DNA from: Methylophaga sp.
Lineage (GTDB): Bacteria > Pseudomonadota > Gammaproteobacteria > Nitrosococcales > Methylophagaceae
Direction: 5' to 3' (one strand)
Length of the DNA stretch: 24,000 nucleotides
Assembly (NCBI RefSeq): GCF_002696735.1
Contig: NZ_NZSL01000019.1
The notes under the pieces were generated by a model. It made no database searches, was not told the DNA's origin, and saw only the letters and a program-made list of their open reading frames with translations. The translations under genes and the position numbers were made by a program. Positions within the stretch are counted from its first letter, which is position 1, and each line of letters starts with the position of its first letter. Below, in pieces: positions 2,848-19,495 of the stretch.

Positions 2848-2894
2848 TAAGCGTACGGGAAACTCGACGCGACACCGTTGGATCGCCTGATACT

Positions 2895-3181
2895 TCAGGA
2901 CGACTCCCTGGCAAAGAACGTCGCCGCTTCGCGTAAAAAATACCGTTCCTTCTTCACTCGCGCCAGTTCACGTTTAAGAAGGGCAACTTCTTCATCTCTG
3001 GGACTACCTGTACCATTAAAGGCCTGCTGGCCATTCTGATCTGCTTCACGTCGCCATCTCGTTAGCAGATTTGGAGCAAGCCTCAGTTTTTGAGCAATCT
3101 GGGCACAGCTAAACCTGGCTGCCGGGTTTATTCAACAGCACCACGTTTGAACTCTGGACTGTATTTTCTTCTCTTCGACAT
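2895..3181 (-). pseudogene. IS3-family OrfA (HTH) interrupted by a frameshift
   Basis: ATG at 3181 gives MSKRRKYSPEFKRGAVE followed by TAA. The next frame continues [78 protein letters not shown]. This is consistent with loss of one A in GAAATA (now GAATA), near 3126-3132. Confidence 0.7.
2934..2940 (-). promoter_or_regulatory. Programmed -1 ribosomal frameshift heptamer U UUU UUA (orfA to orfAB)
   Basis: The minus strand reads gaa cgg taT TTT TTA cgc in the orfA frame. The -1 frame from this point is open into OrfB. This is the standard IS3-family arrangement. Confidence 0.6.
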
Positions 3182-3494
3182 AAACATTCCTTTTGCCCAT
3201 TATCAGGCTTCTTTGAAGTGTCCGCAAAATCGGGGTAGAGCCCCTAGGGATTGTATTTGTTCTAGGTTGGTATCCTAGAGGGGCTAAACAATTATCCTTA
3301 GCTCTTTTGCCAATTATTTTGGGCTGTATTGGGCTTAACTACTTACATCAACAGCTTTTAAATCAAGTATCAAACAAATTCCAGTGGACGATCCAGATAG
3401 TTTCGTCAAACTAATGATTCACCAGATTAATTATTTTAATGTGTCCAGCAACGACGATCAGGGAATGCTATGTAGCTCTATGTCATCTAAATAT

Positions 3495-3557: not shown

Positions 3558-4061
3558 ATGTCAGAAAAATATATTGAAATTGAAATGAAGCCTAAAGCTG
3601 GGAGAAGAGTTAAGCCTGCTCATGTTACAAAATACTCAACGCCACTGCCAACTCCCGAAGAAATAATGATAAGTGTTGGATTTTCTACCAATAATAAACT
3701 GCAACTTATTCAGCAAATAAGACGAGGTGTAGCAGTTTCTTCGCTATATGCACTGGCCGATAGACTAAGCATTGGCGTGAATGAAATGAATGAGATAGTC
3801 AATATTTCAGCAAGAACATTTACCAGAAGAAAGCGTGAAGGTGTGCTTCACGCCGATGAAACGGAACGCGTTTACCGACTTGCTGATCTCATGGCTAGAG
3901 CAACCGAAGTGCTGCATAGTAATGAAGATGCACAGCATTGGCTCAAAACTCCCAAAAAAGCATTGGGAGGTGAAACGCCTCTGAAACTGGCTGATACAGA
4001 ATTAGGAGCGAAAGAGGTTAAAGACTTACTGGGTAGAATTGAGCATGGTGTCTTTTCATGA
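3558..4061 (+). CDS. Xre/ParS/MbcA-type antitoxin (DUF2384 toxin-binding domain)
   Basis: The C-terminal half (TFTRRKREGVLHADETERVYRLADLMARATEVLHSNEDAQHWLKTPKKALGGETPLKLADTELGAKEVKDLLGRIEHGVF) matches the DUF2384 pattern. GGGG precedes the ATG. The stop overlaps the toxin start (ATGA). Confidence 0.85.
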   Translation: MSEKYIEIEMKPKAGRRVKPAHVTKYSTPLPTPEEIMISVGFSTNNKLQLIQQIRRGVAVSSLYALADRLSIGVNEMNEIVNISARTFTRRKREGVLHADETERVYRLADLMARATEVLHSNEDAQHWLKTPKKALGGETPLKLADTELGAKEVKDLLGRIEHGVFS

Positions 4062-4567
4062 CAGACATTACTGCTGTCCGAATTATTCAAAATCAATTAG
4101 CTTCAAAAACAGAGGTGATCAACGGTATTAAAGTTCCTGCAGCATTTACTGGAGAAGGTTCTAGAAAGTTTGGAGGAAGATGGAATTCTATTGGGACTCC
4201 AATAGTTTACACAGCTGGTACTCAGTCTTTGGCAATCTTAGAAGTTGTTGTTCATGTTGAATCTGAAAGACTGTTAGAGCACTATTCATTGTTTGAGGTA
4301 AGCTTCGATCAAAGTCTTGTATTAGAGCTTTCGCTCGATAGTTTGCCTGAAGATTGGCAGAGTGACCCAGCAGCGGAATCGACTAAAGTAATCGGTGATC
4401 AGTGGGTAAAACAAGCAGATTCTCTTATTCTACAGGTGCCAAGCACTATCGTTAGCGATACACCAAACTACATCATCAATCCTTATCATCCAAATTTAAA
4501 CAAGCTCAATATTATTGGGCCTATACCTTATCCCATTGATCCTAGAATTAAGCAGACCCGTTCTTAA
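4058..4567 (+). CDS. RES-domain toxin (NAD+-targeting, Res/MbcT/ParT family)
   Basis: GGRWNSIGTPIVYTAGTQSLAILEVVVH and LQVPS supply the R-E-S signature. The gene has a 4-nt overlap with the upstream DUF2384 antitoxin. Confidence 0.85.
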   Translation: MTDITAVRIIQNQLASKTEVINGIKVPAAFTGEGSRKFGGRWNSIGTPIVYTAGTQSLAILEVVVHVESERLLEHYSLFEVSFDQSLVLELSLDSLPEDWQSDPAAESTKVIGDQWVKQADSLILQVPSTIVSDTPNYIINPYHPNLNKLNIIGPIPYPIDPRIKQTRS

Positions 4568-4569
4568 AA

Positions 4570-5694
4570 TCAGATTATCCCTTTATTCCTTAAATAGAAT
4601 TCTAATTTCTTACGAAGTATAAGATTTATTCTAAGTGCATTACGAATAGCTTTAACCAGTCTCACTGGCTCAATGGATAAGGCACCCTCTACGTTTTTAA
4701 GATAGTTTGCAAAGAATTCTGCTTCTTCCAATGTACATCTCTTCACATCCAGTGGATCTGCTGTGATTCCCATATAGGTTTTACGGTCAACAGTCGGGAT
4801 ATCACAGTAAACAGGCGGGTCTATATAAACCGATTTATCTCTGCACACAACATATTCGTTATTATCTTGTTCCGTTCTTAGAAACAACTCTGCTTTGTCA
4901 ATAAAGATCAGTATGTTTGCATAGGCAACTTCAGCTGATTCGCCTATCCTCTCAAAGTATTCTGCCTCTCTTGATCGTTTCGTCATTTCATATTGTTTTT
5001 TAAACTTTTTGGCATCTTCATAATGCTCACTCATTGATGCTTCATCGAGAGTATCTGGGCTTTTATCAGGTTCCATGAGGCTCTTGAGAAAGTTAACTGA
5101 GCGAGATATCGCCTTAACCTTAATCATTAGCAGCACTAATGAGAGTAGAGCAAACAAGGTTCCGATCCTTACAGCAAATATATCTGCTGACATGGCTCCA
5201 TCAAATGCTACCCGCTTATCTTCATAATAATAGCCAGTGCCTTGTAGAATCGTTTCCAGGTAGAACCTGGCATAGTTACTAGAGCTGTGTGGAGATACCA
5301 GTTTGACATCATCTGATGCGAGTTTAGGTATCACAATTTCTTTTTGCTCAACATAGATCATGGGTGTGCCTTTACCCTCAAAAGTGACAACCTCTTCACT
5401 CAAAGCGGGTCTACCCTGTTCATTTAGAATCGGGAATTTAGCGGTCACCGGGACTGTACGATTTAAAGAACCCAGATCAGAGATGCTTTCAAGCCTTGTT
5501 GGCTCTGGAATATAACCAATAACTCTTTCTTCATAAGCTACTGTCTGTGTGGTCACTTCTACTGTCGTAATAGGTGTACTAAGCCAATAAAGTCCAAACA
5601 GGACATAGCCAGTGACCAGACCAATTCCAGCAGAGACTTCATTAACAAAGCTCAGATTCCTTTCAATCCCACCAAACCATTTTCTTTTAATCAT
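4570..5694 (-). CDS. Hypothetical two-TM protein (374 aa) with an extracytoplasmic middle domain and a cytoplasmic C-terminal domain
   Basis: Long ORF with hydrophobic segments at GIGLVTGYVLFGLYWL and IGTLFALLSLVLLMI. It lies 48 nt downstream of the DUF2971 gene on the same strand. No family recognised. Confidence 0.7.
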   Translation of the reverse strand: MIKRKWFGGIERNLSFVNEVSAGIGLVTGYVLFGLYWLSTPITTVEVTTQTVAYEERVIGYIPEPTRLESISDLGSLNRTVPVTAKFPILNEQGRPALSEEVVTFEGKGTPMIYVEQKEIVIPKLASDDVKLVSPHSSSNYARFYLETILQGTGYYYEDKRVAFDGAMSADIFAVRIGTLFALLSLVLLMIKVKAISRSVNFLKSLMEPDKSPDTLDEASMSEHYEDAKKFKKQYEMTKRSREAEYFERIGESAEVAYANILIFIDKAELFLRTEQDNNEYVVCRDKSVYIDPPVYCDIPTVDRKTYMGITADPLDVKRCTLEEAEFFANYLKNVEGALSIEPVRLVKAIRNALRINLILRKKLEFYLRNKGII

Positions 5695-5742: not shown

Positions 5743-6672
5743 TTAATCATCACAAGGTCCGAATATTTCAATTCCTGAACGAGCTGTTAAAGGTAATTGG
5801 CCGCAGTCTTCTATATCCGAGCGTCTTAGTTCAAAGCTATCCCCTATTAAGCTCATTTGATAAAACGAAATGTCACGGGGTTTAAGTGCATTCATAACAG
5901 CATGAATGACAGATAACGAGCATCGTAGACCAAAGATAATTTCCACTAAACATAGAGGAGAATCTTGTATGCCTACTTCTCCTATTAATCGCCACTCTTG
6001 TTCATATTGCCAAGGTTCAGCTTTACGTAAGAGTGTGTTTTGATCTAAGGCTTTCTGAGCTTGTATATCATGATGTAAAACTGCTTTAGCAATTAGACTG
6101 GTCTTGATTGTTCTTGCACCTCCATAAAGCACTTTATGAAGTGATGGTTCAGGGTTTCTATTTAATGAATAACCCACACAAAACCCTTTATGCTGGTCAC
6201 CATAATGACTCCAGAGTATGGGGTTAGAGTACTCAGCTGAAAAGCAGCATATACCACGGTTATTTTGCTTTAAAAGTTCGCTATGTATTCCATGGTGAAA
6301 CATCCCACATTCCGCCTCTTCAACCGAGCAAGTGTAGTCCGGATTAGTAGCGTAATGCTCAATCCTTCTTAGTTCATTTTCGGATGACTGCTGTGCTTGT
6401 TCTTTAGCACGTGAGTTACTAATTTTATCGGTGAGATTGGTTGCTTGAAGAGAGTTTGTTACTTCTTTTTCGACTCTTTTCTGTATTAATGAGCTTAGTA
6501 TTTGTCTTAATGTTTCTCTATCTGAGTCTCGCTCTACAGCTGGATTACAGTCCAGTGGGTCATTAAAATTTGTAGGATCGGAAAAATATAGCTGGTCATG
6601 GCATAAGGCATCAAGGGAAAGGGCATTGAATGCTTGATATCGATAAATGATTTCAGGGTTGCTTTCTCTCAT
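5743..6672 (-). CDS. DUF2971-family protein (309 aa)
   Basis: IYRYQAFNALSLDALCHDQLYFSDPTNFNDPLD ... PILWSHYGDQHKGFCVGY ... KVLY ... PWQYEQEWRL matches my memory of the DUF2971 motif series. Confidence 0.75.
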   Translation of the reverse strand: MRESNPEIIYRYQAFNALSLDALCHDQLYFSDPTNFNDPLDCNPAVERDSDRETLRQILSSLIQKRVEKEVTNSLQATNLTDKISNSRAKEQAQQSSENELRRIEHYATNPDYTCSVEEAECGMFHHGIHSELLKQNNRGICCFSAEYSNPILWSHYGDQHKGFCVGYSLNRNPEPSLHKVLYGGARTIKTSLIAKAVLHHDIQAQKALDQNTLLRKAEPWQYEQEWRLIGEVGIQDSPLCLVEIIFGLRCSLSVIHAVMNALKPRDISFYQMSLIGDSFELRRSDIEDCGQLPLTARSGIEIFGPCDD

Positions 6673-6761: not shown

Positions 6762-6796
6762 TAAAAAAGCCCCTACCCGAAGAAGGTAGAGGCTTT
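6762..6796 (-). terminator. Rho-independent terminator of leader module A
   Basis: Minus-sense AGCCUCUACC-UUCUUCG-GGUAGGGGCU followed by UUUUUUAUU. It is paralogous to the terminator at 16858-16899. Confidence 0.75.
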
Positions 6797-6821: not shown

Positions 6822-6968
6822 TTATGCGGTTCTGTCACTATGTTTGTCTTTGTGCTTACGCTTCTCATCTACTCTGGTTGCATAGTTACCAAGGCAAATG
6901 AAAAACGCTAAAATTAGAACAGCACCTATTACTAATTCCGGCTTTATGTATTCTAAAATAGTCATCAT
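6822..6968 (-). CDS. Small membrane protein A2 (48 aa; one TM plus a basic tail). Not in the supplied ORF track.
   Basis: MMTILEYIKPELVIGAVLILAFFICLGNYATRVDEKRKHKDKHSDRTA. The start AUGAUGA overlaps the A1 stop and lies behind GGAGGAAAUGA. The architecture matches B2 at 16933-17031. Confidence 0.6.
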   Translation of the reverse strand: MMTILEYIKPELVIGAVLILAFFICLGNYATRVDEKRKHKDKHSDRTA

Positions 6969-7150
6969 TCATTTCCTCCGTCTCTAAACTTAATACCATA
7001 GTAAATCAAAACGCCTCCCAACAATATAGCAATGAAAGCGCTAGCCAGTGATTCACCACTATTAGCAAATGCTAACCCGATGAAACCTGCAGTAATGACA
7101 TTGGTGCCTACCTTAATGGAAGCTTCACCTGCGTCTTTCCTCATAGACAT
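6965..7150 (-). CDS. Small two-TM membrane protein A1 (61 aa)
   Basis: MSMRKDAGEASIKVGTNVITAGFIGLAFANSGESLASAFIAILLGGVLIYYGIKFRDGGNE. GGAGAA lies 6 nt before the ATG, directly after the structured leader. Confidence 0.65.
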   Translation of the reverse strand: MSMRKDAGEASIKVGTNVITAGFIGLAFANSGESLASAFIAILLGGVLIYYGIKFRDGGNE

Positions 7151-7335
7151 TCTCCGAAAATAAAAAAGGGAGAATGCCCCCTGAAGGGAATTCTCCCTTC
7201 AGGGTTGAGGTTAACTGCGTCCGTAGAAGCAGCAACATTATGTAAGATACCAACCGTAGTCAGTATCCGTTGAGCACAGCGTTAAAGCAGCTGTGGCACT
7301 TCAGGTACTTGAGTAATCAAGTACGCAGAATCAAT
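7151..7335 (-). promoter_or_regulatory. Structured 5' leader, copy A (five hairpins plus a terminator/antiterminator-like 3' end)
   Basis: See findings. Hairpins: GUACUUGA/UCAAGUAC, CACAGC/GCUGUG, AUACUGAC-UACG-GUUGGUAU and CCCUGAAGGGA-GAAU-UCCCUUCAGGG. The alternative pairing is GGGAGAAU...AUUCUCCC followed by U6. Copy A is paralogous to 17235-17430 and 19255-19460. Confidence 0.7.
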
Positions 7336-7341
7336 GACTTA

Positions 7342-7350
7342 ATAATAACA
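7342..7350 (-). promoter_or_regulatory. Extended -10 promoter element of leader A (TGtTATTAT)
   Basis: It aligns column-for-column with the -10 hexamers of copies B (TAATAT) and C (TATTAT), at the same distance from hairpin P1. The -35 element is weak. Confidence 0.45.
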
Positions 7351-8414: not shown

Positions 8415-8669
8415 ATGAGAAAGGTAAGTGCCGTCTTGTCTTCAGTGACTATTGGTATTACAGAGCTTAAGCGTAATCCGATGGTTGTTGTCGACGAATC
8501 AGATGGGGAAACTGTTGCTGTTTTAAACAGGAACAAAGCGGTGTTTTATGCGGTTCCCGCGGAAGCGTATGAGGCAATGATTGAGCGGCTGGAAGATGCA
8601 GAACTTGCTGCCCTTGTGCGTGCGAGGGAGCAACAGCCTCGTATAGAAGTGGATTGGGATGACCTATAG
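8415..8669 (+). CDS. stbD: Phd/YefM/StbD-family antitoxin
   Basis: ITELKRNPMVVVDESDGETVAVLNRNKAVFYAVPAEAYEAMIERLEDAELAALVRAREQQP is the classic StbD/YefM fold pattern. The gene overlaps the relE start by 11 nt. Confidence 0.85.
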   Translation: MRKVSAVLSSVTIGITELKRNPMVVVDESDGETVAVLNRNKAVFYAVPAEAYEAMIERLEDAELAALVRAREQQPRIEVDWDDL

Positions 8670-8946
8670 TTTAAGATTTACTGAAGACTCCAAGAAGGAA
8701 TGGGACAAGCTTGATGCGGGGATCAGAAAGAAGCTCGCAAAAAAGTTGAAAGATCGGCGTGAAAACCCTCGGGTACCGTCGGCGAAGCTTGTTGGAATGA
8801 AAGATTCATACAAGATAAAGCTTAGAGATGATGGTTATCGACTGGTCTATACGGTTGTTGATGAAACCATCACCATCGATGTAATTACTGTTGGTAAGCG
8901 TAATAAAAACTTAGTTTATAAGAAAGCATTAAAGCGAATAGGATAA
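8659..8946 (+). CDS. relE: RelE/StbE-family mRNA-interferase toxin
   Basis: MTYSLRFTEDSKKEWDKLDAGIRKKLAKKLKDRRENPRVPSAKLVGMKDSYKIKLRDDGYRLVYTVVDETITIDVITVGKRNKNLVYKKALKRIG aligns along its whole length with E. coli RelE as I remember it (LDFDERALKEWRKL...YKIKLRSSGYRLVYQV...VGKRERSEVY). Confidence 0.9.
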   Translation: MTYSLRFTEDSKKEWDKLDAGIRKKLAKKLKDRRENPRVPSAKLVGMKDSYKIKLRDDGYRLVYTVVDETITIDVITVGKRNKNLVYKKALKRIG

Positions 8947-8965: not shown

Positions 8966-9457
8966 TCACAAATCCTTTAGGTAGCGCTGTGACTCTCTGT
9001 TTTTCCAAGATTCTAATAGTCTGAGTTGAGCTGCTGTAAGATTATTGGACAGTTTGTCTAAAAGTAGATTGAGTTGGAGCAGGTCTTGGCTATCGTTGAG
9101 CCAATCATCCAGAACGATAAAGCTTGCCTGTTTGTCTCTAAGCAAACTATCAGCTATTAAATCAGCAATTGCTCTCGGATGAGTAGCTGCATATGCTTTA
9201 TCCCCATCAAAGACAATACCTAGGTTCTTTAAAACCTGGCCGCATTCCTCAATGCCATTACTTTCATATAAGCTAATGGTATTTACTTCAGCACCAATAC
9301 CAGCATAGAAACCACGCGTATATCCATTTTCTGAAAAAACGCTTTGAAAATGCCAATCACCAGAACCTGATGGGGATGGGATGTTAAGGGATGCTAGTCC
9401 ACTTAAATAGAACTTTGGTGAGGTTTGTTTTAGGTGAATCAAGGGATATACCTGCAC
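8966..9457 (-). CDS. Hypothetical protein (163 aa, GTG start)
   Basis: Clean ORF, no recognised family and no obvious SD. Its upstream region is only 67 bp from the left inverted repeat of the ISL3 element. Confidence 0.55.
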   Translation of the reverse strand: MQVYPLIHLKQTSPKFYLSGLASLNIPSPSGSGDWHFQSVFSENGYTRGFYAGIGAEVNTISLYESNGIEECGQVLKNLGIVFDGDKAYAATHPRAIADLIADSLLRDKQASFIVLDDWLNDSQDLLQLNLLLDKLSNNLTAAQLRLLESWKNRESQRYLKDL

Positions 9458-9755: not shown

Positions 9756-10130
9756 ATGAAAGAAGTCCAAGCGATTAATGCCTTTGCGGCAATTTCTCAA
9801 GAGACAAGACTTCGTATTATCCGGTTACTGGTGGTAACAGGAGCCAATGGATTGGCGGCGGGTGAGATAGGAAGCTCGCTCGGCGGTGTGCCATCGTCTC
9901 GGCTCTCTTTTCACCTCAGCCAGCTTGAACATGCTGGCCTCGTCGAAAAGCGACGAGAGGGACGCTCAATCATTTACAGCGCTATTTTCCCAGCACTGTC
10001 TGATCTCGTTGCGTTTCTAATGCACGACTGCTGTCAGGGTCACTGTGCCTACTGTGATAAAGCCATTGAGCTGTTTTCCAAGTGCGAAGGACGACCTACA
10101 TCAACTGAAAATGTGAACTTAAAAAAATGA
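9756..10130 (+). CDS. ArsR/SmtB-family metalloregulator with a C-terminal Cys cluster
   Basis: The winged HTH reads AISQETRLRIIRLLVVTGANGLAAGEIGSSLGGVPSSRLSFHLSQLEHAGLVEKRREGRSIIY. The C-terminal DCCQGHCAYC resembles the C-terminal As(III) site type of Acidithiobacillus ArsR rather than the helix-3 CVC site. Confidence 0.85.
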   Translation: MKEVQAINAFAAISQETRLRIIRLLVVTGANGLAAGEIGSSLGGVPSSRLSFHLSQLEHAGLVEKRREGRSIIYSAIFPALSDLVAFLMHDCCQGHCAYCDKAIELFSKCEGRPTSTENVNLKK

Positions 10131-11047
10131 TCCGATTAATTTCTTTCGTTGAATCCCATCTTGTGTGGTTCGTCATTGTTGTCGCTGGAATGGGATTAAT
10201 AATCCCTGAAACAGGAATATTCCTTGAGCCCTCTATTGGGTTATTACTGGCGTTGCTGATGCTCGTTATCAGCTTGACCTTCGATGCGCACGATGTACGG
10301 CTAGTACTTCGTAAGCCATCAAGACAGTTTTTGGCACTGGGTCTGGTCTATGGACCAATGTCGATCGCCGGATGGCTGACTGGCCGCCTATTTTTTGGGA
10401 GCGGCCCGCTGGCTGCTGGCCAAACCTTGCTTGGCACCCTGCCAACGGATGTTTCCTCTCCTCTTCTAGTGTTGATGGCGAGAGGCAATGTAGCGCTAGC
10501 TGCCGTTTTTAATGCAGTCAACACGGCGTTATCTCCGTTTATAGTTCCTTTCTTGTTTTTATCGCTGACAGGCATACAACTGGAGGTTCCTCTTGGCTCG
10601 ATTATCCTCGAATTGGTGCTGATTGTCCTCATTCCTACCGTCTTGGGTGTGAGCTTGCGTACAGGATTTCCGAAATTTTTTGCAAGGCATGATTCAGCTT
10701 ATGCGGGGCTTGGTTCAATTATATATCTCCTGATACTTCTCGCTGTGGTAGGTCCGAACGCAGAAACAATCATTGGTTATGGTTGGTACGCTTTTGTAAT
10801 TGCTGGAGCGGCCCTATGTCTAAACCTGATTGGCTACTTAGTAGGAATGGCTGCACGATTGCTAACCACTGATCGCAAAGAGGTAATCACATATCTATTT
10901 ACCGTGAGCAAAAAGGAATTCAGCATTGCTGCTGCCTTTGTAGCCGCATCCGGCCTGCCATCAGAAATAGCGATTCCAGCCACGTTTTTTGCAGTGATTC
11001 AAATGATTACCTCACCTATTGCGGCCAAGATTCTCGCAAGGGGCTGA
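10127..11047 (+). CDS. BASS/SBF (bile acid:Na+ symporter superfamily) permease, possibly a metalloid transporter
   Basis: 306-aa polytopic ORF. GTLPTDVSSPLLVLMARGNVALAAVFNAVNTALSPFIVPF fits the SBF signature region. It is translationally coupled to the ArsR gene (ATGA overlap). Confidence 0.7.
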   Translation: MIRLISFVESHLVWFVIVVAGMGLIIPETGIFLEPSIGLLLALLMLVISLTFDAHDVRLVLRKPSRQFLALGLVYGPMSIAGWLTGRLFFGSGPLAAGQTLLGTLPTDVSSPLLVLMARGNVALAAVFNAVNTALSPFIVPFLFLSLTGIQLEVPLGSIILELVLIVLIPTVLGVSLRTGFPKFFARHDSAYAGLGSIIYLLILLAVVGPNAETIIGYGWYAFVIAGAALCLNLIGYLVGMAARLLTTDRKEVITYLFTVSKKEFSIAAAFVAASGLPSEIAIPATFFAVIQMITSPIAAKILARG

Positions 11048-11079: not shown

Positions 11080-12456
11080 ATGACTAGTCTACCTGTCAAT
11101 GTGTTGCAACTTAACAAGTATGACGTTTGGAATATTAAAGAGAGTGAGCATGACTATCATTTCCAAGTGGAAGCTAAAACTCCTATTGCTTGCGAGGAAT
11201 GCGGCGTAGAAGGTGAGTTCGTCAGGTTTGGAAAGCGTGATGTCGCCTATCGGGACCTCCACATTCATGGCAAACGGGTTACCCTCTGGGTAGTACGTCG
11301 CCGTTACACGTGCCGGGCCTGCGGCAAGACGTTTCGGCCCGCGCTCCCGGACATGGCGGATGACCATCGCATGACTCGCCGGCTATACAGCTACGTTGAA
11401 AAAAAGGCTTTCAATCACCCCTACGCCTATGTAGCCGATACCACGGGCCTCGATGAGAAGACCATACGCGACATCTTCAAGAAGAAGGCTGAGTTCCTGG
11501 CGATTTGGCACCGCTTCGAGACACCCCGCTGCCTGGGTATCGACGAGCTGTACCTGAACCGCCGCTACCGCTGCATCCTGACCAACTTGGAGGAGCGCAC
11601 CCTGTTGGACCTGTTGCCCGGTCGTCAGCAGGACGCGGTGACGAAGCGGCTCATGAGCATGACCGAGCGTGACAAGGTCGAGATCGTCAGTATGGATATG
11701 TGGAAGCCCTACCGCCGTGCCGTCCAGGCGGTGCTGCCACAGGCCCGCATCGTGGTCGATAAGTTCCATGTTGTGCGTATGGCCAACGAAGCCCTGGAAA
11801 AGATCCGCAAGGGGCTCAGGAAGGAGCTGACGGCCAACCAGCGACGAACCCTCAAGGGTGACCGGAAGATCCTGCTGAAGCGGGCTCACGACGTTTCAGA
11901 CCGCGAGCATCTCATCATGGAAACATGGACAGGGACCTTCCCCCAGCTCCTGGCAGCCTACGAGCACAAGGAGCGGTTCTACCACATCTGGGACTGTGCC
12001 ACCCGGCGTGATGCCGAGAAGGCACTGGCTGCCTGGATTGACGACATCCCGCAGGGACAGAAGAAAGTCTGGAAGGATCTTGTCAGCGCCGTCAGCGAAT
12101 GGCGTGAGGAGATGCTCACCTACTTCGAGACCGACATCCCGATCACCAACGCCTTCACGGAGTCGATCAATCGGCTGGCCAAGGACAAGAACCGCGATGG
12201 CCGGGGCTACTCATTCGAAGTGATGCGGGCCCGGATGCTATATACCACCAAGCACAAGAAGAAGGCGCCGCAGACCAAGCAATACCCCTTCCTGGGCAGG
12301 GCTACCATGACCTACAACATGGGCCTGCCCGATCCCGAGCAGAACTTCGGCGTCGATCTATCAACCTTCTGGCAGGACTATGCATTTGGATGGGTTTCAG
12401 TGCCCCTTCAACCAGTTAATCCGGATACCCATAGTTATTTGAGTGTTTTAATCTAG
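11080..12456 (+). CDS. tnpA: ISL3-family transposase
   Basis: N-terminal zinc ribbon (CEECG...YTCRACGKTF) and a DDE_Tnp_ISL3 core (LGIDELYL..., VSMDMWKPYRRAV, VVDKFHVVRMANEAL, TNAFTESINRLAKDKNRDGRGY). The ORF reads through the right inverted repeat and stops 26 nt outside the element. Confidence 0.92.
   Translation: MTSLPVNVLQLNKYDVWNIKESEHDYHFQVEAKTPIACEECGVEGEFVRFGKRDVAYRDLHIHGKRVTLWVVRRRYTCRACGKTFRPALPDMADDHRMTRRLYSYVEKKAFNHPYAYVADTTGLDEKTIRDIFKKKAEFLAIWHRFETPRCLGIDELYLNRRYRCILTNLEERTLLDLLPGRQQDAVTKRLMSMTERDKVEIVSMDMWKPYRRAVQAVLPQARIVVDKFHVVRMANEALEKIRKGLRKELTANQRRTLKGDRKILLKRAHDVSDREHLIMETWTGTFPQLLAAYEHKERFYHIWDCATRRDAEKALAAWIDDIPQGQKKVWKDLVSAVSEWREEMLTYFETDIPITNAFTESINRLAKDKNRDGRGYSFEVMRARMLYTTKHKKKAPQTKQYPFLGRATMTYNMGLPDPEQNFGVDLSTFWQDYAFGWVSVPLQPVNPDTHSYLSVLI
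12404..12430 (-). repeat. Right inverted repeat of the ISL3-family element
   Basis: The reverse complement GGGTATCCGGATTAACTGGTTGAAGGG matches the left inverted repeat. From memory, it resembles the GGGTATCCGGA-type ends of ISPpu12-like elements. Confidence 0.8.
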
Positions 12457-13238: not shown

Positions 13239-14306
13239 TTAATCATCACTTCCGATATAAGCACTTGAAATGGATTCACGACTGTGGCCAAGGTTTTCAG
13301 AAACCATGAGCCTGGCGATCCTTTCTTCTATCTTGTCGATTTCCTGTGCCAGCTTTGGCACATCTTTCACTGCTGCAGGGTGGCCGGTGGTTCGTTCATA
13401 CAGTCTCTGTGCGTAACCGTGTCTCAGGCCGTGCGGTGTAATACCCGTTTCCCGCGAAATTCCATTTCTATTCATGATCCGGTAATAGTGTTTGATCCAA
13501 CGCTTTGGGTCTGAACGTCTGGGAATCATTGATTCGTTAGTGTCGTAGCAGTAACTTTGCAGCTCTTCCAGGTATTGACGTTGTTCTGCTGATTCAACAG
13601 GTAATGTTCTAGGCCGACCACCTTTGGTGCCACGTCGAACATGGATGAACTGACCTTCACGGTCATAATCCAGGTTTGGCCTGAACAGCATGGATTCTTT
13701 GGCTCGTAGTCCAAACAGATGCGCTAGCTTCAGTTGTCTACCGCAATATTTGCAGTCTTCTTCAACTTTTTGGATTACGTCGTTAATGTCGAACTTGTCA
13801 TCCCAGCTTTTATCTTCTGTAGCTACATATTGACGTTTCATTAATTCTGGCTTGGTAAATAGCTCTTCATCAGATAAGCCTTTAATCACAGCCTCTTTGC
13901 CCATCCACCCCAAAAAGACTCTCAAAATAGAAACTTTTTGGACTACAGAGGCGGGCTTCAGGTCTTCCCTGGCTTCCCAGAAATGTGTCAGGGCTTTTAC
14001 GTGCTTCTGACGAATATGGGTTGGCAATGTAATCCGATACCCCAGGTCATGCAGTGTCTGCGCCATAGAACGGATTTCATTAAATCTATTTGCCTTTGTT
14101 TTTTCTGCTACAGGCTTTTGACGTTTGGAATGCGTTGCATTGTGTCGATAAAGAACGTGCTGTACGTTGTAAACAAAGATGGTTCTCACCGTCCAAGGTT
14201 TACCGTGCCTGTTCAGGCGACCTCGCATTTCAGGTGCAGCAAATACATAGTCCCCCTCCGTCACAGTCAACGGCGGTTGAAATGGTTTATCTAATGGTTT
14301 TCCCAT
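13239..14306 (-). CDS. Tyrosine recombinase (phage-integrase family, 355 aa)
   Basis: The catalytic series is present: FGLRAKES (R), TKGGRPRT, HGLRHGYAQ (H-x-x-R), LGHSRESISSAYIG (H...Y). GGAGA precedes the ATG. Confidence 0.85.
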   Translation of the reverse strand: MGKPLDKPFQPPLTVTEGDYVFAAPEMRGRLNRHGKPWTVRTIFVYNVQHVLYRHNATHSKRQKPVAEKTKANRFNEIRSMAQTLHDLGYRITLPTHIRQKHVKALTHFWEAREDLKPASVVQKVSILRVFLGWMGKEAVIKGLSDEELFTKPELMKRQYVATEDKSWDDKFDINDVIQKVEEDCKYCGRQLKLAHLFGLRAKESMLFRPNLDYDREGQFIHVRRGTKGGRPRTLPVESAEQRQYLEELQSYCYDTNESMIPRRSDPKRWIKHYYRIMNRNGISRETGITPHGLRHGYAQRLYERTTGHPAAVKDVPKLAQEIDKIEERIARLMVSENLGHSRESISSAYIGSDD

Positions 14307-15269
14307 TTTTTTAATCTCCAGTTTTAATCAATTTTTCATAAGCAGTTTTTCCTCTCTAGTCACTCGTTAAAATCATCAGTAGTTATCAATCAATACCCAT
14401 ACGATAGGGAACTCTCATCAGGTGCAGCTCTTAACTGCGGCTAATTCTTAAACGTGAGTTATATCTTTCATGGAAGGTTTTGTTCAGACCCGACATGACG
14501 CTGCTATCACTGCAAAGCACTAGTAGATGGTCGACCTACTCCTTTACAGAATCTTTGATGATAGCCAGCCACCTAGTTCATCTCTGTCACAGATTTACAT
14601 GGTGTTCGGTTGGTTTTTGATACACACAAAAATACGATCGTGATTGAATTTGTTCCCAATAATCCCCGCCAGCAGGATGCTCGATCACGTTATGTCCGCC
14701 CTAGTAAAACGCTGCTCCGACAACAGACTTTGTTTACATCAGGTTTATGGCCAATCTTTTTGTGGTTTCGTATGGTTTACAGTCAAACCGTAGTTCGCTG
14801 TACTTCGATTGATGCGTGTCTCCATAGAGACAGCCCTACTTGTTGGACAGTGACCGCCGTAGCAATCCGATTAATACCGTGTCCGTAATGATTTTTAGAC
14901 ATAGAAATCCGTCAACATGCGTTTTCAGCATATTTACAGCTCTTTTTGTCTTTTTTTGAGTGAGCAACGTTCGGTGAACGTAGCTTAGAGAGAGCCATTT
15001 TTAATGCAGTTGGCTTGCTGCTCTCTTCAGACCCGGAGGGCCCTATTGAAGATTGGGCATATTTTCAGATCAACACCCCCTTGTCTGTCAAGGATTTTGT
15101 AGATCGGTTTTTTCTCAAAGTCTGGAATAAAGTTCTTATCTGAGCTGCATCGTCTTGTTTCGACTGTGGTTTCTGCTCTGGTTTTGCCCCTCAGTCTCCA
15201 CGGCAATTTTTTCCAATGCAACTTAGGTGCGTTTTTGAGAAAACTGACAATTATTTTATTTTCTAATAC

Positions 15270-15305
15270 TTCAGGTGTCCTGTAGGTGTCCTGCAGGACT
15301 TCTGG
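15270..15305. repeat. Iteron R1 (contains GTGTCCTGTAG-GTGTCCTGCAG-GAC and the 12-bp palindrome GTCCTGCAGGAC)
   Basis: TTCAGGTGTCCTGTAGGTGTCCTGCAGGACTT is repeated, with one mismatch, 83 bp downstream. Confidence 0.8.
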
Positions 15306-15352
15306 TGTTGTAAATCTCTGAATTTAATTTGGAGATTGTGGGAAATGAGATG

Positions 15353-15388
15353 TTCAGGTGTCCTGTAGGCGTCCTGCAGGACTTGTAG
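15353..15388. repeat. Iteron R2
   Basis: TTCAGGTGTCCTGTAGGCGTCCTGCAGGACTT. It sits immediately upstream of a possible promoter (TTGATT, 18 nt, TAATCT) for the parM-like operon. Confidence 0.8.
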
Positions 15389-15588
15389 GGGTTGATTTTA
15401 TAGGTGCGCCCGAGGTAATCTATATTTGTCCGTCAAATCTGACGCTCCTGCGCATAACTTCCACGGAAGTGTGCATCAAAAAAGGCCTACTTCAGGCCAT
15501 ATTTCAAACTCAATCTATCGCGTGCTTGCTTAAAGGCTCCAGATGCCTTTGTGTGCGCGTTTTTCTGTATTTCCGTGGAGGAACGCTG

Positions 15589-16590
15589 GTGAACAATATT
15601 AATCCTGTAATTCGTGCTGTAGACGTAGGCTATGGCAATACTAAATTCATTCGTAACATTGTTAATGGTCGTGCTGAGGCAGATCACTTTCCATCAATTG
15701 TTAACCGCCCCAGTGTTAACAAGAATAGCTTTCAAGAAAGTCCTGATATCTACCAAGTCGTTGTGAATGGTAATCGCTATGAAGTGGGGCCAGGCATTGA
15801 TGCCGCACTTGAAGGCGGTGTTCGCATCATGCATGAAAATTATATTGAGACCGAAGACTACATGGCATTGATGTATGGTGCTCTTACACAAATGGACGTG
15901 GATGTTATTGATTTATTGGTTGTGGGTTTACCAGTTGATCTCATGAGTAGTAAAAGGTCGCTTTTAGAAAAACGGCTTGTTGGTTCTCATCGCGTTGGAA
16001 ATCGTGACGTTCAAATCAAAAAGGTTAACGCGGTAGCTCAACCATTAGGTGGGTTTTTGCACTACGCATCACAAGCAAAATTGCTAGAGGAATTGAGCAG
16101 CACTAGAAATTTATTGATTGATCCAGGCTTTTTCACAGTCGATTTTCTTGTATCAACTGGCTTGAGAGAAATTAGTGGTAAAAGTGGCAGTCACCCAACC
16201 GGAATGAGTGCTTATTTGAAAGCTGTGGCCAAAGGTATCAGCGAAGACCTCTCTATCAATTACGACAACATTTCTCATATTGATGAAGGGATTCGTAAAG
16301 GCCGGTTCCGTCTGTATGGCCAGGATGTAGATTTAGCAAAATATCATCAGGCAGCACTGACTGAAATAATGCCAGCAGTGGACGCTATTTCAAATAAGGT
16401 CGGTGACGGTCGGAGCATCGATCAGATTATTTTGGTAGGCGGTGGTGCCAGAATCTTTTTAGATCCCATTAAGAAACTGCTACCTAAACATCACGTTCAT
16501 TGTGATGAGCATTCAGTATTGGCAAACGTGCTTGGCTTTCAAAAGATTGGTGAAGCTTGGTATGCACGGAATCACCGTGAGGTAGCGTAA
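15589..16590 (+). CDS. ParM/StbA-family actin-like segregation ATPase (333 aa from GTG)
   Basis: GGAGGA, 6 nt, then GTG at 15589. The N-terminus NNINPVIRAVDVGYGNTKF is the phosphate-1 motif of StbA/ParM-like proteins. DPGFFTVDF and LVGGGA fit the later actin-fold motifs. The 410-aa track ORF adds an implausible 77-codon extension that covers iteron R2. Confidence 0.8.
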   Translation: MNNINPVIRAVDVGYGNTKFIRNIVNGRAEADHFPSIVNRPSVNKNSFQESPDIYQVVVNGNRYEVGPGIDAALEGGVRIMHENYIETEDYMALMYGALTQMDVDVIDLLVVGLPVDLMSSKRSLLEKRLVGSHRVGNRDVQIKKVNAVAQPLGGFLHYASQAKLLEELSSTRNLLIDPGFFTVDFLVSTGLREISGKSGSHPTGMSAYLKAVAKGISEDLSINYDNISHIDEGIRKGRFRLYGQDVDLAKYHQAALTEIMPAVDAISNKVGDGRSIDQIILVGGGARIFLDPIKKLLPKHHVHCDEHSVLANVLGFQKIGEAWYARNHREVA

Positions 16591-16847
16591 TGGTTGAGCT
16601 AATTCGGATGAATCAGAAAATTCCAAGAGTCGAAGATCCTGAGCTTTATGAATATCTGTCTAAATTCAATGACAGAGGAAGAGCATATCAAGCACGAAAG
16701 CTTATGCTTTTAGGTTTGGTGCAACTAGGAAAGTTAAATGGTGGTGAGTTAGATGTGATGCCCCATCCTTCTGGCCAGAAAGATATCAGTATCGAAAAGG
16801 ATGAGTTTGATCTCATCGCGGATGCCGGCGTGGGTGAATTGTTTTGA
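16590..16847 (+). CDS. Small acidic protein (85 aa), candidate ParR-like adaptor
   Basis: TAATG overlap with the parM-like gene. The position is equivalent to parR in parMRC loci. There is no sequence-level recognition. Confidence 0.5.
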   Translation: MVELIRMNQKIPRVEDPELYEYLSKFNDRGRAYQARKLMLLGLVQLGKLNGGELDVMPHPSGQKDISIEKDEFDLIADAGVGELF

Positions 16848-16857
16848 CAGTCCCAAA

Positions 16858-16899
16858 CAAAAAAGCCCCAACCTTATTGCAAAGGTAGGGGCTTTCTAT
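16858..16899. terminator. Bidirectional rho-independent terminator (parM operon / leader module B)
   Basis: AAAAAAGCCCCAACCTT-ATTGCA-AAGGTAGGGGCTTTCTATT. There are U-rich runs on both strands. Confidence 0.75.
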
Positions 16900-16932
16900 T
16901 ATCTCCGTGGAAATAATCTCTTAATAGGGTTT

Positions 16933-17031
16933 TTAGTCTTTACGGTGCTTTTTGTGTTCCTGATAATAAGCAATCGAGAACACTATAGCGCACACAAGAA
17001 AAATGATGCCAGAAGCTATTGTGAGGTTCAT
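16933..17031 (-). CDS. Small membrane peptide B2 (32 aa; TM plus basic tail). Not in the ORF track.
   Basis: AAGGAGGAGG, 5 nt, then ATG: MNLTIASGIIFLVCAIVFSIAYYQEHKKHRKD. The start overlaps the stop of the upstream frame (AAUGA). It resembles the A2 tail EKRKHKDKH. Confidence 0.6.
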   Translation of the reverse strand: MNLTIASGIIFLVCAIVFSIAYYQEHKKHRKD

Positions 17032-17234
17032 TTTTCCTCCTCCTTCGTTTTAGGTTTTTCAGAACATGGTGCCTCAATTATACCAAGGAGCCAGGTACAT
17101 ACTGAAAACATTATTGGCCAAATAAAATCGCTAAATCATTTGTCATTGACCAGCACACTAATCAAAGCAGCAAGAAATACAGCAATAGCTATTTTCCTGA
17201 TGTCATCTTGTACCGATTTAAAGTTAAGCCTCAT
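17028..17234 (-). pseudogene. B1: a 68-codon small-membrane-protein frame with an in-frame TGA at codon 33
   Basis: MRLNFKSVQDDIRKIAIAVFLAALISVLVNDK, then TGA (17136-17138), then FSDFIWPIMFSVCTWLLGIIEAPCSEKPKTKEEEK. Its position and its coupling to B2 are the same as for A1/A2. Confidence 0.5.
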
Positions 17235-17430
17235 AGGCACTCTCCAAATAAAAAAGGGAGAACGCCGCCCCTGAAAGGAGAAACATTCTCCCTTCAGGGT
17301 TGAGGTAATCTGCCACCTTAGTAACAGTTACATTTTGCAGGATACTAACCGAAGTTAGCATCTATTGAGCACAGCATTTAAGCAGCTGTGGCACTTCAGG
17401 TACTTGAATACTCAAGTACGCAGAATCTGT
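17235..17430 (-). promoter_or_regulatory. Structured 5' leader, copy B
   Basis: It aligns with copy A along its whole length, with long identical blocks (e.g. the 44-nt run GATTCTGCGTACTTGA-to-CTGCTT, interrupted only by three changes in the P1 loop). P3 becomes GAUGCUAAC-UUCG-GUUAGUAUC. The terminator-like pairing is GGGAGAA...UUCUCCC plus U6. Confidence 0.7.
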
Positions 17431-17436
17431 AATTCA

Positions 17437-17465
17437 ATATTACGCTTAACCGGAAATGATGGCAA
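17437..17465 (-). promoter_or_regulatory. Sigma70-type promoter of leader B
   Basis: TTGCCA (17465-17460), 17 nt, TAATAT (17442-17437). Confidence 0.6.
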
Positions 17466-17466
17466 T

Positions 17467-18693
17467 TTACCCCTTGAGTACAATTACTCTATCAGTAGAT
17501 ATGCCTTTAATCGGTCCCTCATCTTGTATGGCACCTATTAGACGCAGCTCGTTTAGAAGGTCTGAAGGACTGTCCGTGTAGCTTCTGAATGTAGTGGGGT
17601 ATTTCACTTTTATGGTATTGCCTTCCTGCTTGGCATATTCGGACGTGATACGTTTCTTTTGAATATCCACCTTGAGTCTGGCCACAAAGTTTTTCGCAGT
17701 GATTTCGTCATCATGCTCTGGCGGATAATCATCAATATTCTGTGGTGGTTCTTCCATCTCAGGTGGCATGGAGTCTATTTGATTTGACGGTATAGGCTCT
17801 ACTGGAGCGTGACTGCTTTGTTTCGGAGCTGGTTCTTTTGCTGCTTGTTGTGGTTTAACAGGCGTGGTTTTAATGAATTCACCAGTCTCTTTGTCAATCT
17901 GCTCACTTGATGGGGCCGGATTGTCTCTAGGTTTGTTGGCCTTTTCGGCTTGGATCAGTGCTGCTTCAAAAGAGATTTCATCACGCAAAGTAGATGTGGC
18001 TCTGACAATGATCGAGTACAACGGATTGTCTTGGATTTTATGGCCACCCGCTAGAATATCTAACATGCAGTCCATAAGCTCATGGTCACCATATATCCAC
18101 TCAATGCCTTCTGTGGGGACAATATCCCTGATATGAAGTACGGTGCTTGTATAGGACAGTGAGCGTGTAATCCCTGGTACTTTTCTCATGCGATAATGAT
18201 TGAATTCATCGATACGGTGTTTCCAGCACTGCCACTCACCGGCAGGTTTATCATTTTTGGCAAAGCCAATGATCTTCACACCCAGCATTTGCCCACCAAA
18301 GTCTCGAAGGAGTGCGGCAACAAATAAGCCATATGTCCAACACTCACCTCGATGTGATATTTCCTCTGGCTTACATTTTAGTGGCAGCAGTGTTCCCAGT
18401 CGAAGCTTTAAGGTCAATGCTACACGCTTAATAGCAACTTCAATTGCGCCACCCTTTTTTGCGTACTCCCCTTCATGACCAAACGGACGAAGCTGAAGCA
18501 TTTCTGCCAGACGCTCTATTGCCGGCAAGTAATAGCTATCAAAATATGCTCGTGTACAACCGGCATCATTGCGGATCTTTTTAATCAGCAATGAATGAGG
18601 GGCAAGTAGGTCTTTAGCAGTAAGAAATGGGATTCCATCAGCAGGAATAGATGTTGATGGTGCTAGTAAAGTGGTTTTTCGACGGCCAAACAT
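17467..18693 (-). CDS. TraI_2/MOBH-relaxase-like protein (408 aa), with apparent substitutions in the catalytic motifs
   Basis: GGAGAA precedes the ATG at 18693, and the longer track ORF would run through a terminator. The N-terminal ~250 aa align, from memory, with the ICE relaxase family PFL_4751/TraI_2 (LLAPHSLLIKKI...YLPAIERLAEMLQLRPF...GGAIEVAIKRVALTLKLR...ECWTYGLFVAALLRDFGG). A P/Q/E-rich linker and a small C-terminal domain follow. Confidence 0.55.
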   Translation of the reverse strand: MFGRRKTTLLAPSTSIPADGIPFLTAKDLLAPHSLLIKKIRNDAGCTRAYFDSYYLPAIERLAEMLQLRPFGHEGEYAKKGGAIEVAIKRVALTLKLRLGTLLPLKCKPEEISHRGECWTYGLFVAALLRDFGGQMLGVKIIGFAKNDKPAGEWQCWKHRIDEFNHYRMRKVPGITRSLSYTSTVLHIRDIVPTEGIEWIYGDHELMDCMLDILAGGHKIQDNPLYSIIVRATSTLRDEISFEAALIQAEKANKPRDNPAPSSEQIDKETGEFIKTTPVKPQQAAKEPAPKQSSHAPVEPIPSNQIDSMPPEMEEPPQNIDDYPPEHDDEITAKNFVARLKVDIQKKRITSEYAKQEGNTIKVKYPTTFRSYTDSPSDLLNELRLIGAIQDEGPIKGISTDRVIVLKG

Positions 18694-18793: not shown

Positions 18794-18824
18794 AAAAAAA
18801 GCCTCACTTCAATGAAGTGAGGCT
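18794..18824 (-). terminator. Rho-independent terminator after the 140-aa gene
   Basis: Minus-sense AGCCUCACUUCA-U-UGAAGUGAGGCU followed by UUUUUUU. Confidence 0.75.
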
Positions 18825-18831
18825 GGCTTGT

Positions 18832-19254
18832 CTACAGGTATTGTAGCTTTTTAACATCGAACGTTACCGATGCAGGTTCAAATCTTGGAGATTCAACCGG
18901 AATACCACTTCCATTAATTTTCTCGATTTTGTACCAGGCATGCTGGCTGTCATCGAAAAAGTGCGAAAGACGTACTTTTTTCCCTAGCTTATTCATACAT
19001 ACGGTCGTGTTGTAACTAAACTCACTCAAATCGCCTTCAGGCTTCCAAGTAGTTATGTTCCGTGACGGTTGCAACAAGGCAGGGAGATTACGACTTAACA
19101 ACAACTTAAATGGCACAAAAAACATTCTCGACATTACCGTTTGGTGTGTGTCGGGATCATATTTACCTTGTCGTTGAAGTGAGGCGATTACTTTTTGGTC
19201 GTAGCAAAAAACAAAAAAGGCAATCGCCAGTAACGTAGGAATAATATCTTGCAT
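18832..19254 (-). CDS. Hypothetical N-terminally anchored membrane protein (140 aa)
   Basis: The N-terminal TM segment is IIPTLLAIAFFVFCY. GAGGAGAAAGAAAG precedes the ATG. It lies directly downstream of leader copy C. Confidence 0.65.
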   Translation of the reverse strand: MQDIIPTLLAIAFFVFCYDQKVIASLQRQGKYDPDTHQTVMSRMFFVPFKLLLSRNLPALLQPSRNITTWKPEGDLSEFSYNTTVCMNKLGKKVRLSHFFDDSQHAWYKIEKINGSGIPVESPRFEPASVTFDVKKLQYL

Positions 19255-19460
19255 CTTTCTTTCTCCTCAAAGTGATAAATACAACCCATAGAGAAAGATC
19301 GCCCCCATAAGGAGAGATAAATCCCCTTATGGGTTGATGCTATCCACGCTTCCTTGGAAGCGTGGTTATTAGATTACAACCGGTCATTGAACGGATGTAA
19401 TTGAGCGCAACGTATAGTGGTTGCGACACTTCTCGCAGCTAATGTATTAGCTACAAAGAT
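19255..19460 (-). promoter_or_regulatory. Structured 5' leader, copy C (divergent)
   Basis: Same hairpin order as A and B, with compensatory changes: P1 GUAGCUAA/UUAGCUGC, P2 CGCAAC/GUUGCG, P4 CCACGCUUCC-AA-GGAAGCGUGG, P5 CCCAUAAGGGGA/UCUCCUUAUGGG. The single-stranded GAAGUG, CUCAA and UCAACCC are conserved. Confidence 0.6.
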
Positions 19461-19466
19461 AGGATG

Positions 19467-19495
19467 ATAATATCGGCTAAATCGTCACTAATCAA
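19467..19495 (-). promoter_or_regulatory. Sigma70-type promoter of leader C
   Basis: TTGATT (19495-19490), 17 nt, TATTAT (19472-19467). Confidence 0.55.

Follow-up and report, generated by a model that had tools for sequence, protein, structure and literature searches.

Why is an RNA leader of about 195 nucleotides (nt) kept nearly unchanged in front of genes, and behind promoters, that resemble one another no more than chance would allow? The question arises from a 24,000-nt stretch of DNA from Methylophaga sp. (contig NZ_NZSL01000019.1), hereafter the window, in which a segment that we call module B is read on the minus strand from position 17465 towards 16856, directly after a relaxase-like gene. 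On balance, we regard 17428..17235(-) as the 5' untranslated leader of a short operon made up of a sigma-70 promoter, the 195-nt leader, two small open reading frames (ORF1 and ORF2) and a strong terminator. It is reasonably likely, in our view, that this leader acts in cis to block translation initiation, and that in copies of its own type (A/B, below) it may also cause premature termination. We further favour the interpretation that a conjugative element or megaplasmid of Methylophaga, of the type represented by PFGI-1 and ICEclc, carries three such leaders, the paralogues A, B and C, of which this is B. Our computations show a conserved structure, the sequestration of both the Shine-Dalgarno (SD) sequence and the AUG, a pair of competing hairpins and a consistent placement of promoters; what the leader controls is probably the expression of genes for small membrane proteins.

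The structure was derived from 16 distinct leaders, taken from Methylophaga plasmids and marine metagenomes, which were aligned with MAFFT without reference to structure and folded with RNAalifold. The consensus fold contains 43 pairs, and 97.5% of the cells at these pairs hold standard base pairs, compared with 88.5% in shuffled controls, none of which (0/500) reached the observed value, and 40 to 49% in slid registers. The leaders support five hairpins (P1 to P5), a helix between an anti-SD element and the SD, and a helix between the J4/5 segment and the start codon. Changes on both sides of the pair are seen at 16 pairs, five of them in P1, three in P2, four in P3, three in P4 and at least one in P5, where more appear after the C types are realigned by one column (UGA/UCA to AUA/UAU). 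Hairpins P1 to P5 thus carry genuine double compensatory changes, and this support exceeds that available to the preliminary description of module B. For leader B itself, which runs for about 195 nt from its predicted 5' end to the base preceding the AUG, the minimum free energy (MFE) fold lies far below those of shuffled sequences (z = -7.05), and the covariance models score it at 212 bits (first model) and 196 bits (broader model). Leader A likewise folds far more stably than its shuffled sequences; the two z values are -7.0 (copy B) and -7.9 (copy A).

The 5' domain consists of four hairpins, which in copy B are P1 (17424..17396), P2 (17394..17367), P3 (17362..17341) and P4 (17331..17305), parted by single-stranded segments. 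Three of these segments are invariant, AAGUG in J1/2, GCUCAA in J2/3 and UCAACCC in J4/5 (17303..17297 in copy B), and J3/4 is rich in A. The apex of P4, UC-NNNG-GA, is also invariant. The extreme 5' tail, UCU, pairs with (A/U)GA and co-varies with it, prolonging P1. Several other proposals for this region were considered and rejected. Competition between CCUGAAG of J1/2 and the 5' arm of P5 for CUUCAGG fails because the complementarity is gone in the C types; pairing of the 5' tail with the SD or the coding region is inconsistent between copies, the tail extending P1 instead; CsrA-type GGA sites in the P4 loop are replaced by GGU in several copies; and a leader peptide is discounted by the absence of any conserved ORF within the leader.

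All features of the three modules lie on the minus strand unless marked otherwise. The copy A leader (7332..7145), which the covariance models match, is followed by ORF1-A, whose real start is the AUG at 7144 (59 amino acids), ORF2-A at 6968..6822 (48 amino acids) and a terminator at 6796..6766. Copy C had no place in the preliminary description. It was found at 19465..19276(-) by a covariance model built from nine A/B leaders (60 bits, E = 2e-14), and the broader model scores it at 202 bits; an unfiltered run of that model found no fourth leader in the window. The copy C leader, at 19462..19255, is a full-length but diverged paralogue with 58 to 60% identity to copies A and B, and precedes the gene for a 140-amino-acid protein with an N-terminal transmembrane helix (19254..18832), which ends at a strong terminator (18824..18800). 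The three units therefore share one architecture: promoter, leader, membrane-protein gene or genes, and terminator.

How does the leader act on the genes behind it? The best-supported role for UUCUCC is that of an anti-Shine-Dalgarno element. None of the 16 leaders has lost the pairing between its UCUCC and the SD GGAGA, and this holds even for C-type copies in which no run of U residues follows. The flanks of this helix vary among A-U, G.U and G-C, and in L086b a C-G pair is replaced by U-A. In copy B the anti-SD element is GGCGUUCUCC (17266..17257), followed by U6 (17255..17250), and the SD is GGAGAGUGCC (17245..17236), whose GGAGA precedes the AUG at 17234. The start codon is itself paired. 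Helix P6 joins J4/5 to the AUG (17234..17232) and the codon after it (17234..17229 together); in the MFE structure of the 3' domain of copy B, UGAGG at 17233..17229 pairs with CCUCA at 17305..17301. The same CCUCA:UGAGG pairing occurs in most A/B copies, with UCUCA:UGAGG in L051 and the double change UCUCA:UGAGA in L032, so that the series across homologues runs from C-G through U.G to U-A. The C types form P6 in another register, as GCAUC:GAUGC, CAUCA:UGAUG, CCAUU:AAUGG, ACCAUC:GAUGGU or AGCAUC:GAUGCU.

P5 (17299..17269 in copy B), the anti-SD:SD helix and P6 meet in a three-way junction in which the SD and the AUG are both buried, so that no part of the translation-initiation region is left open in the full-length RNA. 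For the 3' domain, the calculated energy of this lock is about -36 to -44 kcal/mol. In eight of nine leaders tested there is no structure with a free SD within 3 kcal/mol of the MFE, the exception being copy C of the window, for which the best such fold lies 2.7 kcal/mol above the MFE. The leader accordingly has the conserved helix occluding the SD and/or the start codon by which SD-sequestering elements are recognised.

Each leader is preceded by a sigma-70-like promoter of its own. In copy B a consensus scan finds TTGCCA-17-TAATAT at 17465..17437, with 9/12 matches; as the preliminary description had it, this promoter comes right after the relaxase-like gene, beginning two bases past the stop codon (17469..17467) of that ORF, and TTGCCA-17-TAAnnT is kept in L017b, L028b, L029b, L001b and L086b. 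Copy A has an extended -10 element, TGnTATTAT (TGTTATTAT, 7350..7342), and the promoter scan places TTGATT-17-TATTAT before copy C (19495..19467). Each site lies 6 to 10 nt ahead of a conserved AU(U)CU start. The three promoter sequences are unrelated, yet their distance from the conserved 5' end is fixed to within a few bases, and in A, B and C alike the conserved RNA appears to begin at the transcription start site (TSS) predicted from the promoter directly upstream. In M. pinxianii (L001 4218..5897, L031 801..1217) an IS200/IS605 insertion, comprising tnpA and a transposase gene, separates TraI_2 from the copy-B promoter and leaves that promoter and the leader intact.

The position of copy B against a MobH-type relaxase gene, and the several conserved hairpins in the region, might suggest a different kind of structure altogether, one formed by single-stranded DNA during conjugation, such as an origin of transfer (oriT), a single-strand initiation site (ssi) or a leading-region promoter of the Frpo kind. 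Such an element should not depend on G.U pairs in one strand, nor build its helices from translation signals. The leaders do both: in many of the conserved pairs G faces U on the transcript strand, which would leave A/C mismatches on the opposite strand, and the helices use the SD and AUG of the downstream ORFs. Ordinary double-stranded sigma-70 promoters stand before each copy, and copy A, which neighbours a DUF2971 gene, is separated from the relaxase by 10 kb. We consider a single-stranded DNA function highly improbable.

What, then, is the relationship between modules A and B? The preliminary description treated them as a duplicated unit of about 590 bp. Pairwise alignment, with shuffled sequences as the control, gives 81.4% identity between leader A (7332..7142) and leader B (17428..17233), compared with 50.7 +/- 1.8% for shuffled sequences. 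The 60 nt upstream, which contain the promoter, are 52% identical (shuffled 50.3 +/- 3.4%), and ORF1 plus ORF2 are 53% identical (shuffled 51.2 +/- 1.3%); the 3' untranslated region plus terminator retains weak conservation, at 60.5% (shuffled 47 +/- 3%). BLASTP gives no alignment between ORF1-A and ORF1-B, which are alike only in length and topology. Because promoters and ORFs are at random-level identity and the leader at 81%, the 590-bp unit is common to the two modules as an architecture only, and to judge from these identities it is not a recent copy but a shared arrangement around a selectively conserved leader. The central proposal holds, that of a paralogous structured leader which has a promoter of its own and is followed by two small ORFs and then a terminator; the recent 590-bp duplication does not. 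The leader also stays near-identical in homologues where ORF1 drops to 60% amino-acid identity or is replaced by another ORF1 type. A functionless young duplicate, its similarity due to youth and not to selection, would account for the high identity of leaders A and B and for nothing else; the flanks and ORFs have drifted to random-level identity where the leader has not, and the third paralogue, at 58 to 60%, keeps its helices through compensatory changes. We give this explanation almost no credence, and the comparisons above already contradict it.

At the level of individual helices, the same alignment contains all four of the long identical blocks quoted for A and B, and the 5-nt insertion that makes P5 longer in B. 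The loop and stem of P3 differ as reported, GAUACUGAC-UACG-GUUGGUAUC as against GAUGCUAAC-UUCG-GUUAGUAUC, and all three substitutions keep the stem paired. They are one-sided wobble changes (A-U to G.U, U.G to U-A and G.U to A-U), so that mapping the substitutions onto the helices, as had been proposed, finds the P3 differences compatible with the stem without making them double compensatory changes. Nor does the terminator arm co-vary between the two copies, since its GGGAGAA/UUCUCCC core is the same in both and the difference is confined to the flanking extension (AAU/AUU versus AAUGUU/GGCGUU). Relative to A and B, the metagenome contigs L046, L073 and L032 are mosaics in which the type of promoter, the subtype of leader (P5 short or long) and the type of ORF1 are combined differently; in L073, for example, an A-type ORF1 stands behind a B-type promoter and a leader with long P5. 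These mosaics suggest recombination within the conserved leader.

The GGGAGAA:UUCUCCC pairing had been read as the terminator of the leader. Such a hairpin is real, as an alternative structure in A/B types only, whereas the conserved partner of UUCUCC is the SD. In A/B copies the 5' strand of P5, GAAGGGAGAAU, can pair with AUUCUCCCUUU, and an inner CCCU:GGGG stem adds to the pairing; the resulting hairpin, T-long, has 15 to 17 bp and runs into U6 to U8, the canonical form of an intrinsic terminator. In copy B it occupies 17295..17253, where GAAGGGAGAAUGUU pairs with GGCGUUCUCCCUUU. T-long excludes both P5 and the anti-SD:SD helix. Constrained folds of the sequence up to the U-run put the terminator at -21.9 and P5 at -21.7 kcal/mol in copy A, at -26.4 and -23.6 kcal/mol in copy B, and at -28.6 and -20.3 kcal/mol in L017b, the last terminator value arising because a U-to-G change perfects its stem. 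For most A/B copies the gap between the two hairpins is 0 to 3 kcal/mol, and no A/B variant has lost either of them, not even the indel variant by which copy B is defined. After transcription of the SD, the locked form is favoured over the form with the terminator hairpin by 3 to 13 kcal/mol. A/B types thus have the two hairpins expected of an attenuator, a terminator and an antiterminator that exclude each other and are about equally stable; most C-type copies, which lack a U-run, do not.

Could the terminated product be the functional molecule? If so, the leader would be a stand-alone small RNA (sRNA) of about 170 nt, ending at T-long and acting in trans, for example on the other leader copies, with the ORFs expressed by read-through. 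The A/B copies do have a canonical terminator of -22 to -29 kcal/mol followed by U6 to U8, and conservation of the RNA far exceeds that of the ORFs. Segments of the leader, however, co-vary with the SD and start codon, which makes sense only if leader and ORF belong to one RNA; moreover, the U-run is missing from most C-type copies, and no target complementarity was found in the window. This explanation strikes us as quite doubtful.

We return to the cis-acting leader. In the full-length RNA, the SD and AUG are held shut by the anti-SD:SD helix and P6. In A/B copies, the 5' strand of P5 can pair instead with UUCUCCC-UUU, giving the terminator hairpin followed by U6. At the moment when the U-run has been transcribed, terminator and P5 are about isoenergetic, so that the leader can either end early or be read through into a translationally closed mRNA. 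A trans-acting factor, whether a protein, an sRNA or a small ligand, might then act on the conserved single-stranded segments to select the terminated, locked or open state, and could in this way co-regulate the three membrane-protein units of the element. The four-hairpin 5' domain with its invariant single-stranded segments is the likely site at which such an effector acts.

Several points weigh against this reading, or narrow it. The diversity of the family is that of one family of elements; the split between A/B and C supplies much of the covariation, and what lies beyond that split is a handful of within-type changes. The U-run is absent from most C-type copies and interrupted in L028b, so that termination is not family-wide; translational locking is the family-wide feature, and termination is an extra layer in the A/B types. 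The terminator frees the SD and P5 leads to its sequestration, an arrangement that has no single, simple ON/OFF logic. Protein-family scans of the window revealed no recognisable gene for an RNA-binding protein that might serve as effector, and a complementarity scan of the window revealed no candidate sRNA or other trans-acting RNA. All TSSs and 3' ends given here are predictions, and so is the translation of the small ORFs.

Where does such a leader stand among known regulatory RNAs? Riboswitch-type and attenuator leaders can combine terminator/antiterminator pairs with SD sequestration. Like them, the present leader has a promoter-proximal structured domain with invariant junction nucleotides, co-varying helices, mutually exclusive terminator and antiterminator hairpins with a U-run, and an anti-SD:SD helix. 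Unlike them, it has hairpins that end in simple stable tetraloops, and neither an enclosing P1 nor a multi-helix junction is evident in its 5' domain; it has no match in Rfam 15, and its terminator state frees the SD and does not give a plain dual OFF. One speculative extension is that P1 to P4, with AAGUG, GCUCAA and UCAACCC, form the sensor of a new riboswitch-like or protein-responsive class of RNA, specific to this family of conjugative elements, whose three copies per element would make up a small post-transcriptional regulon coupling a signal to the membrane proteins that flank the relaxase gene. We advance this tentatively and rate it as rather unlikely; were it true, candidates for the signal would be the element's state of transfer competence, some metabolite, or an RNA-binding protein that the element encodes.

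Other comparisons are less close. RNA thermometers of the ROSE and fourU classes also have 5' untranslated regions with several hairpins, the last of which pairs a pyrimidine stretch with the SD, but the lock described here, at -36 to -44 kcal/mol, has a stability far beyond what physiological temperatures could melt; in addition, the AUG is paired and there is a terminator. In F-like plasmids, FinP is a cis-antisense RNA of two stem-loops that acts on the traJ leader with the assistance of FinO. The present system resembles FinP/traJ in being RNA-level control in the transfer and relaxase region of a conjugative element, but it has no conserved antisense promoter, and the genes it controls encode small membrane proteins.

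What do the controlled genes encode? Across the family, ORF1 has 59 to 67 amino acids and two transmembrane helices, and ORF2 has 32 to 48 amino acids, one transmembrane helix and a basic tail. In module B, ORF1-B (17234..17028) is a two-transmembrane small protein and ORF2-B (17031..16933) has 32 amino acids, one transmembrane helix and a basic tail; the ATG of ORF2-B overlaps the stop codon of ORF1-B (ATGA), and ORF2 appears from this arrangement to be translationally coupled to ORF1. In this window ORF1-B is broken by an in-frame TGA at 17138..17136, where the close relatives L041, L044, L045, L056 and L051 have TCA (Ser) and an intact ORF of 67 amino acids. The TGA is probably a nonsense mutation, or the mark of a pseudogene, and would also uncouple ORF2. 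Module B closes with a 3' terminator at 16895..16856 (AAAGCCCCUACCUU...AAGGUUGGGGCUUUUUU), read from the sequence, on which the terminator-type noise of the Rfam search falls. Neither the small ORFs nor the 140-amino-acid protein belongs to a family in Pfam, PHROGs, NCBIfam or PADLOC, and an AlphaFold model of the latter (predicted local distance difference test score, pLDDT, 74) has no Foldseek match in the PDB below E = 0.6. Among 5.8 billion proteins, ORF1-A has two homologue clusters and ORF1-B five, too few to reach distant contexts. L017, a related element, carries leader-plus-ORF modules on both sides of TraI_2 (2812..3323 and 4746..5218), together with an extra, leaderless ORF2-like gene at 5494..5592 (MNLTIASGIIFLVCALVFSIAYYQEHKKHHKD) that is nearly identical to ORF2-B.

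The nature of these proteins brings to mind the type I toxins, whose mRNAs have long 5' leaders, as in hok/mok-sok of plasmid R1, in tisB, zorO and dinQ, and in aapA1 of Helicobacter pylori. ORF1 and ORF2 would then be membrane toxins in modules of the hok, tisB or zorO style, with the leader keeping the transcript inert and an antisense or trans-acting sRNA as antitoxin. The resemblance extends to a long, very stable 5' untranslated region in which the start codon of a small hydrophobic ORF is hidden along with its SD, to the coupling of ORF2 to an upstream ORF as in hok/mok, to the topology of both proteins (ORF1 of about 60 amino acids with two transmembrane helices, and an ORF2 with a single helix and a basic tail), and to the size expected of such toxins, which are small hydrophobic proteins of fewer than about 60 amino acids. 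The modules also lie on mobile DNA in a maintenance region, near the ParM-like PRTRC-D gene and the ParE/Phd and RES-Xre pairs. Promoter-like sites antisense to ORF2 occur at equivalent places in both modules, at 6886..6914(+) and 16939..16967(+).

Does this make the modules type I toxin-antitoxin systems? The antisense promoter matches are at chance frequency and inside ORF2 only, and no antisense terminator is present; none of the leader sequences, as read, has a conserved antisense promoter, and neither the search for antisense promoters nor the complementarity scan of the window found an antitoxin RNA. The same leader family precedes the 140-amino-acid protein in copy C, and not only mini-peptides, so that one paralogue controls a protein of a different kind. 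Searches of Pfam, PHROGs and PADLOC revealed no similarity to known toxin families, each module here has two ORFs and the leader contains an internal intrinsic terminator, unlike the type I toxin leaders. The nonsense mutation in ORF1-B makes copy B, at least, dispensable. A toxin-antitoxin function is for these reasons possible but unlikely. The small ORFs represent two unannotated families of mini-proteins (about 60 and about 32 to 48 amino acids) and could be toxins, exclusion factors or accessory proteins of a type IV secretion system.

How widely is the leader distributed? Rfam 15 has no match at its gathering thresholds anywhere in the window, and a search of 16840..17480 with E up to 10 returned sub-threshold, chance-level matches, none of them over P1-P4 of the leader. 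A literature search found nothing specific on such a leader. The principles at work are known ones, an anti-SD helix together with a terminator/antiterminator pair; the family itself appears to be undescribed. BLASTN of the leader against plasmids matches only two Methylophaga megaplasmids, those of M. pinxianii and M. thalassica, and against phages it gives no match. A pattern scan of GTDB genomes gave 14 loci, of which four are real, all in Methylophaga, and ten are chance matches, about the number expected; among 50 loci from the corresponding scan of metagenomes, 17 were confirmed by the covariance model. The remaining leaders come from contigs that encode the few homologues of ORF1 and of the 140-amino-acid protein. 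All members recovered come from Methylophaga or from contigs of marine and other environmental metagenomes; the public collections were scanned by exact patterns, and more distant relatives may exist.

The gene beside copy B (17467..18693, minus strand) encodes a TraI_2/MobH-type relaxase-like protein. Its start is probably at MFGRRK, near 18693, the longest ORF beginning at 18807 (446 codons). It matches Pfam TraI_2 at 1.9e-20, and NCBIfam MobH and TIGR03760 below their cut-offs; the protein resembles relaxases of MobH or PFGI-1-class integrative and conjugative elements (ICEs), and its homologues have 401 to 411 amino acids. Synteny around it is conserved: TraG_N, an opposite-strand gene for 175 to 188 amino acids, the 140-amino-acid gene, an optional leader with small ORFs, and TraI_2, followed by leader and small ORFs, a gene for 84 to 87 amino acids, the ParM-like PRTRC-D gene and further genes, then an integrase. 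The place of copy B directly after TraI_2 is the ancestral one. RNA-level control inside ICEs of the PFGI-1/ICEclc type is, to our knowledge, almost unexplored, and the leader offers a concrete, testable handle on the timing of genes around the relaxase in such elements; its impact is limited by the narrow host range and by a mechanism built on known principles.

Some further features of the window deserve mention. The DUF2971 protein encoded by module A's neighbour (5743..6672, minus strand) matches the PADLOC candidate defence family PDC-S31 at 1.6e-48, and the adjoining gene (4570..5694, minus strand) encodes a 374-amino-acid protein with no family. The RES/Xre toxin-antitoxin pair is at 3558..4567 and a Phd/ParE type II toxin-antitoxin pair at 8415..8946; a nearby ORF for 163 amino acids (8966..9457) matches the PADLOC AbiEi model at 2.6e-36 and has no Pfam match. 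Between the integrase-like gene (13239..14306) and the PRTRC-D/ParM-like gene, the conserved part of which begins near 15616, lies a long stretch with no convincing gene (14307..15615), which could hold a partition site or an oriT. Cargo genes and insertion sequences also occur. Reading of the translations leads us to assume that 2035..2847 is an IS3-type transposase fragment, that 9756..11047 is a pair resembling ArsR and an ACR3-like arsenite transporter, and that 11080..12456 is an ISL3-like transposase. Finally, 633..1928 encodes an unannotated membrane protein of 431 amino acids, and the related M. thalassica plasmid has a counterpart whose annotation is that of a transporter of the major facilitator superfamily (MFS).

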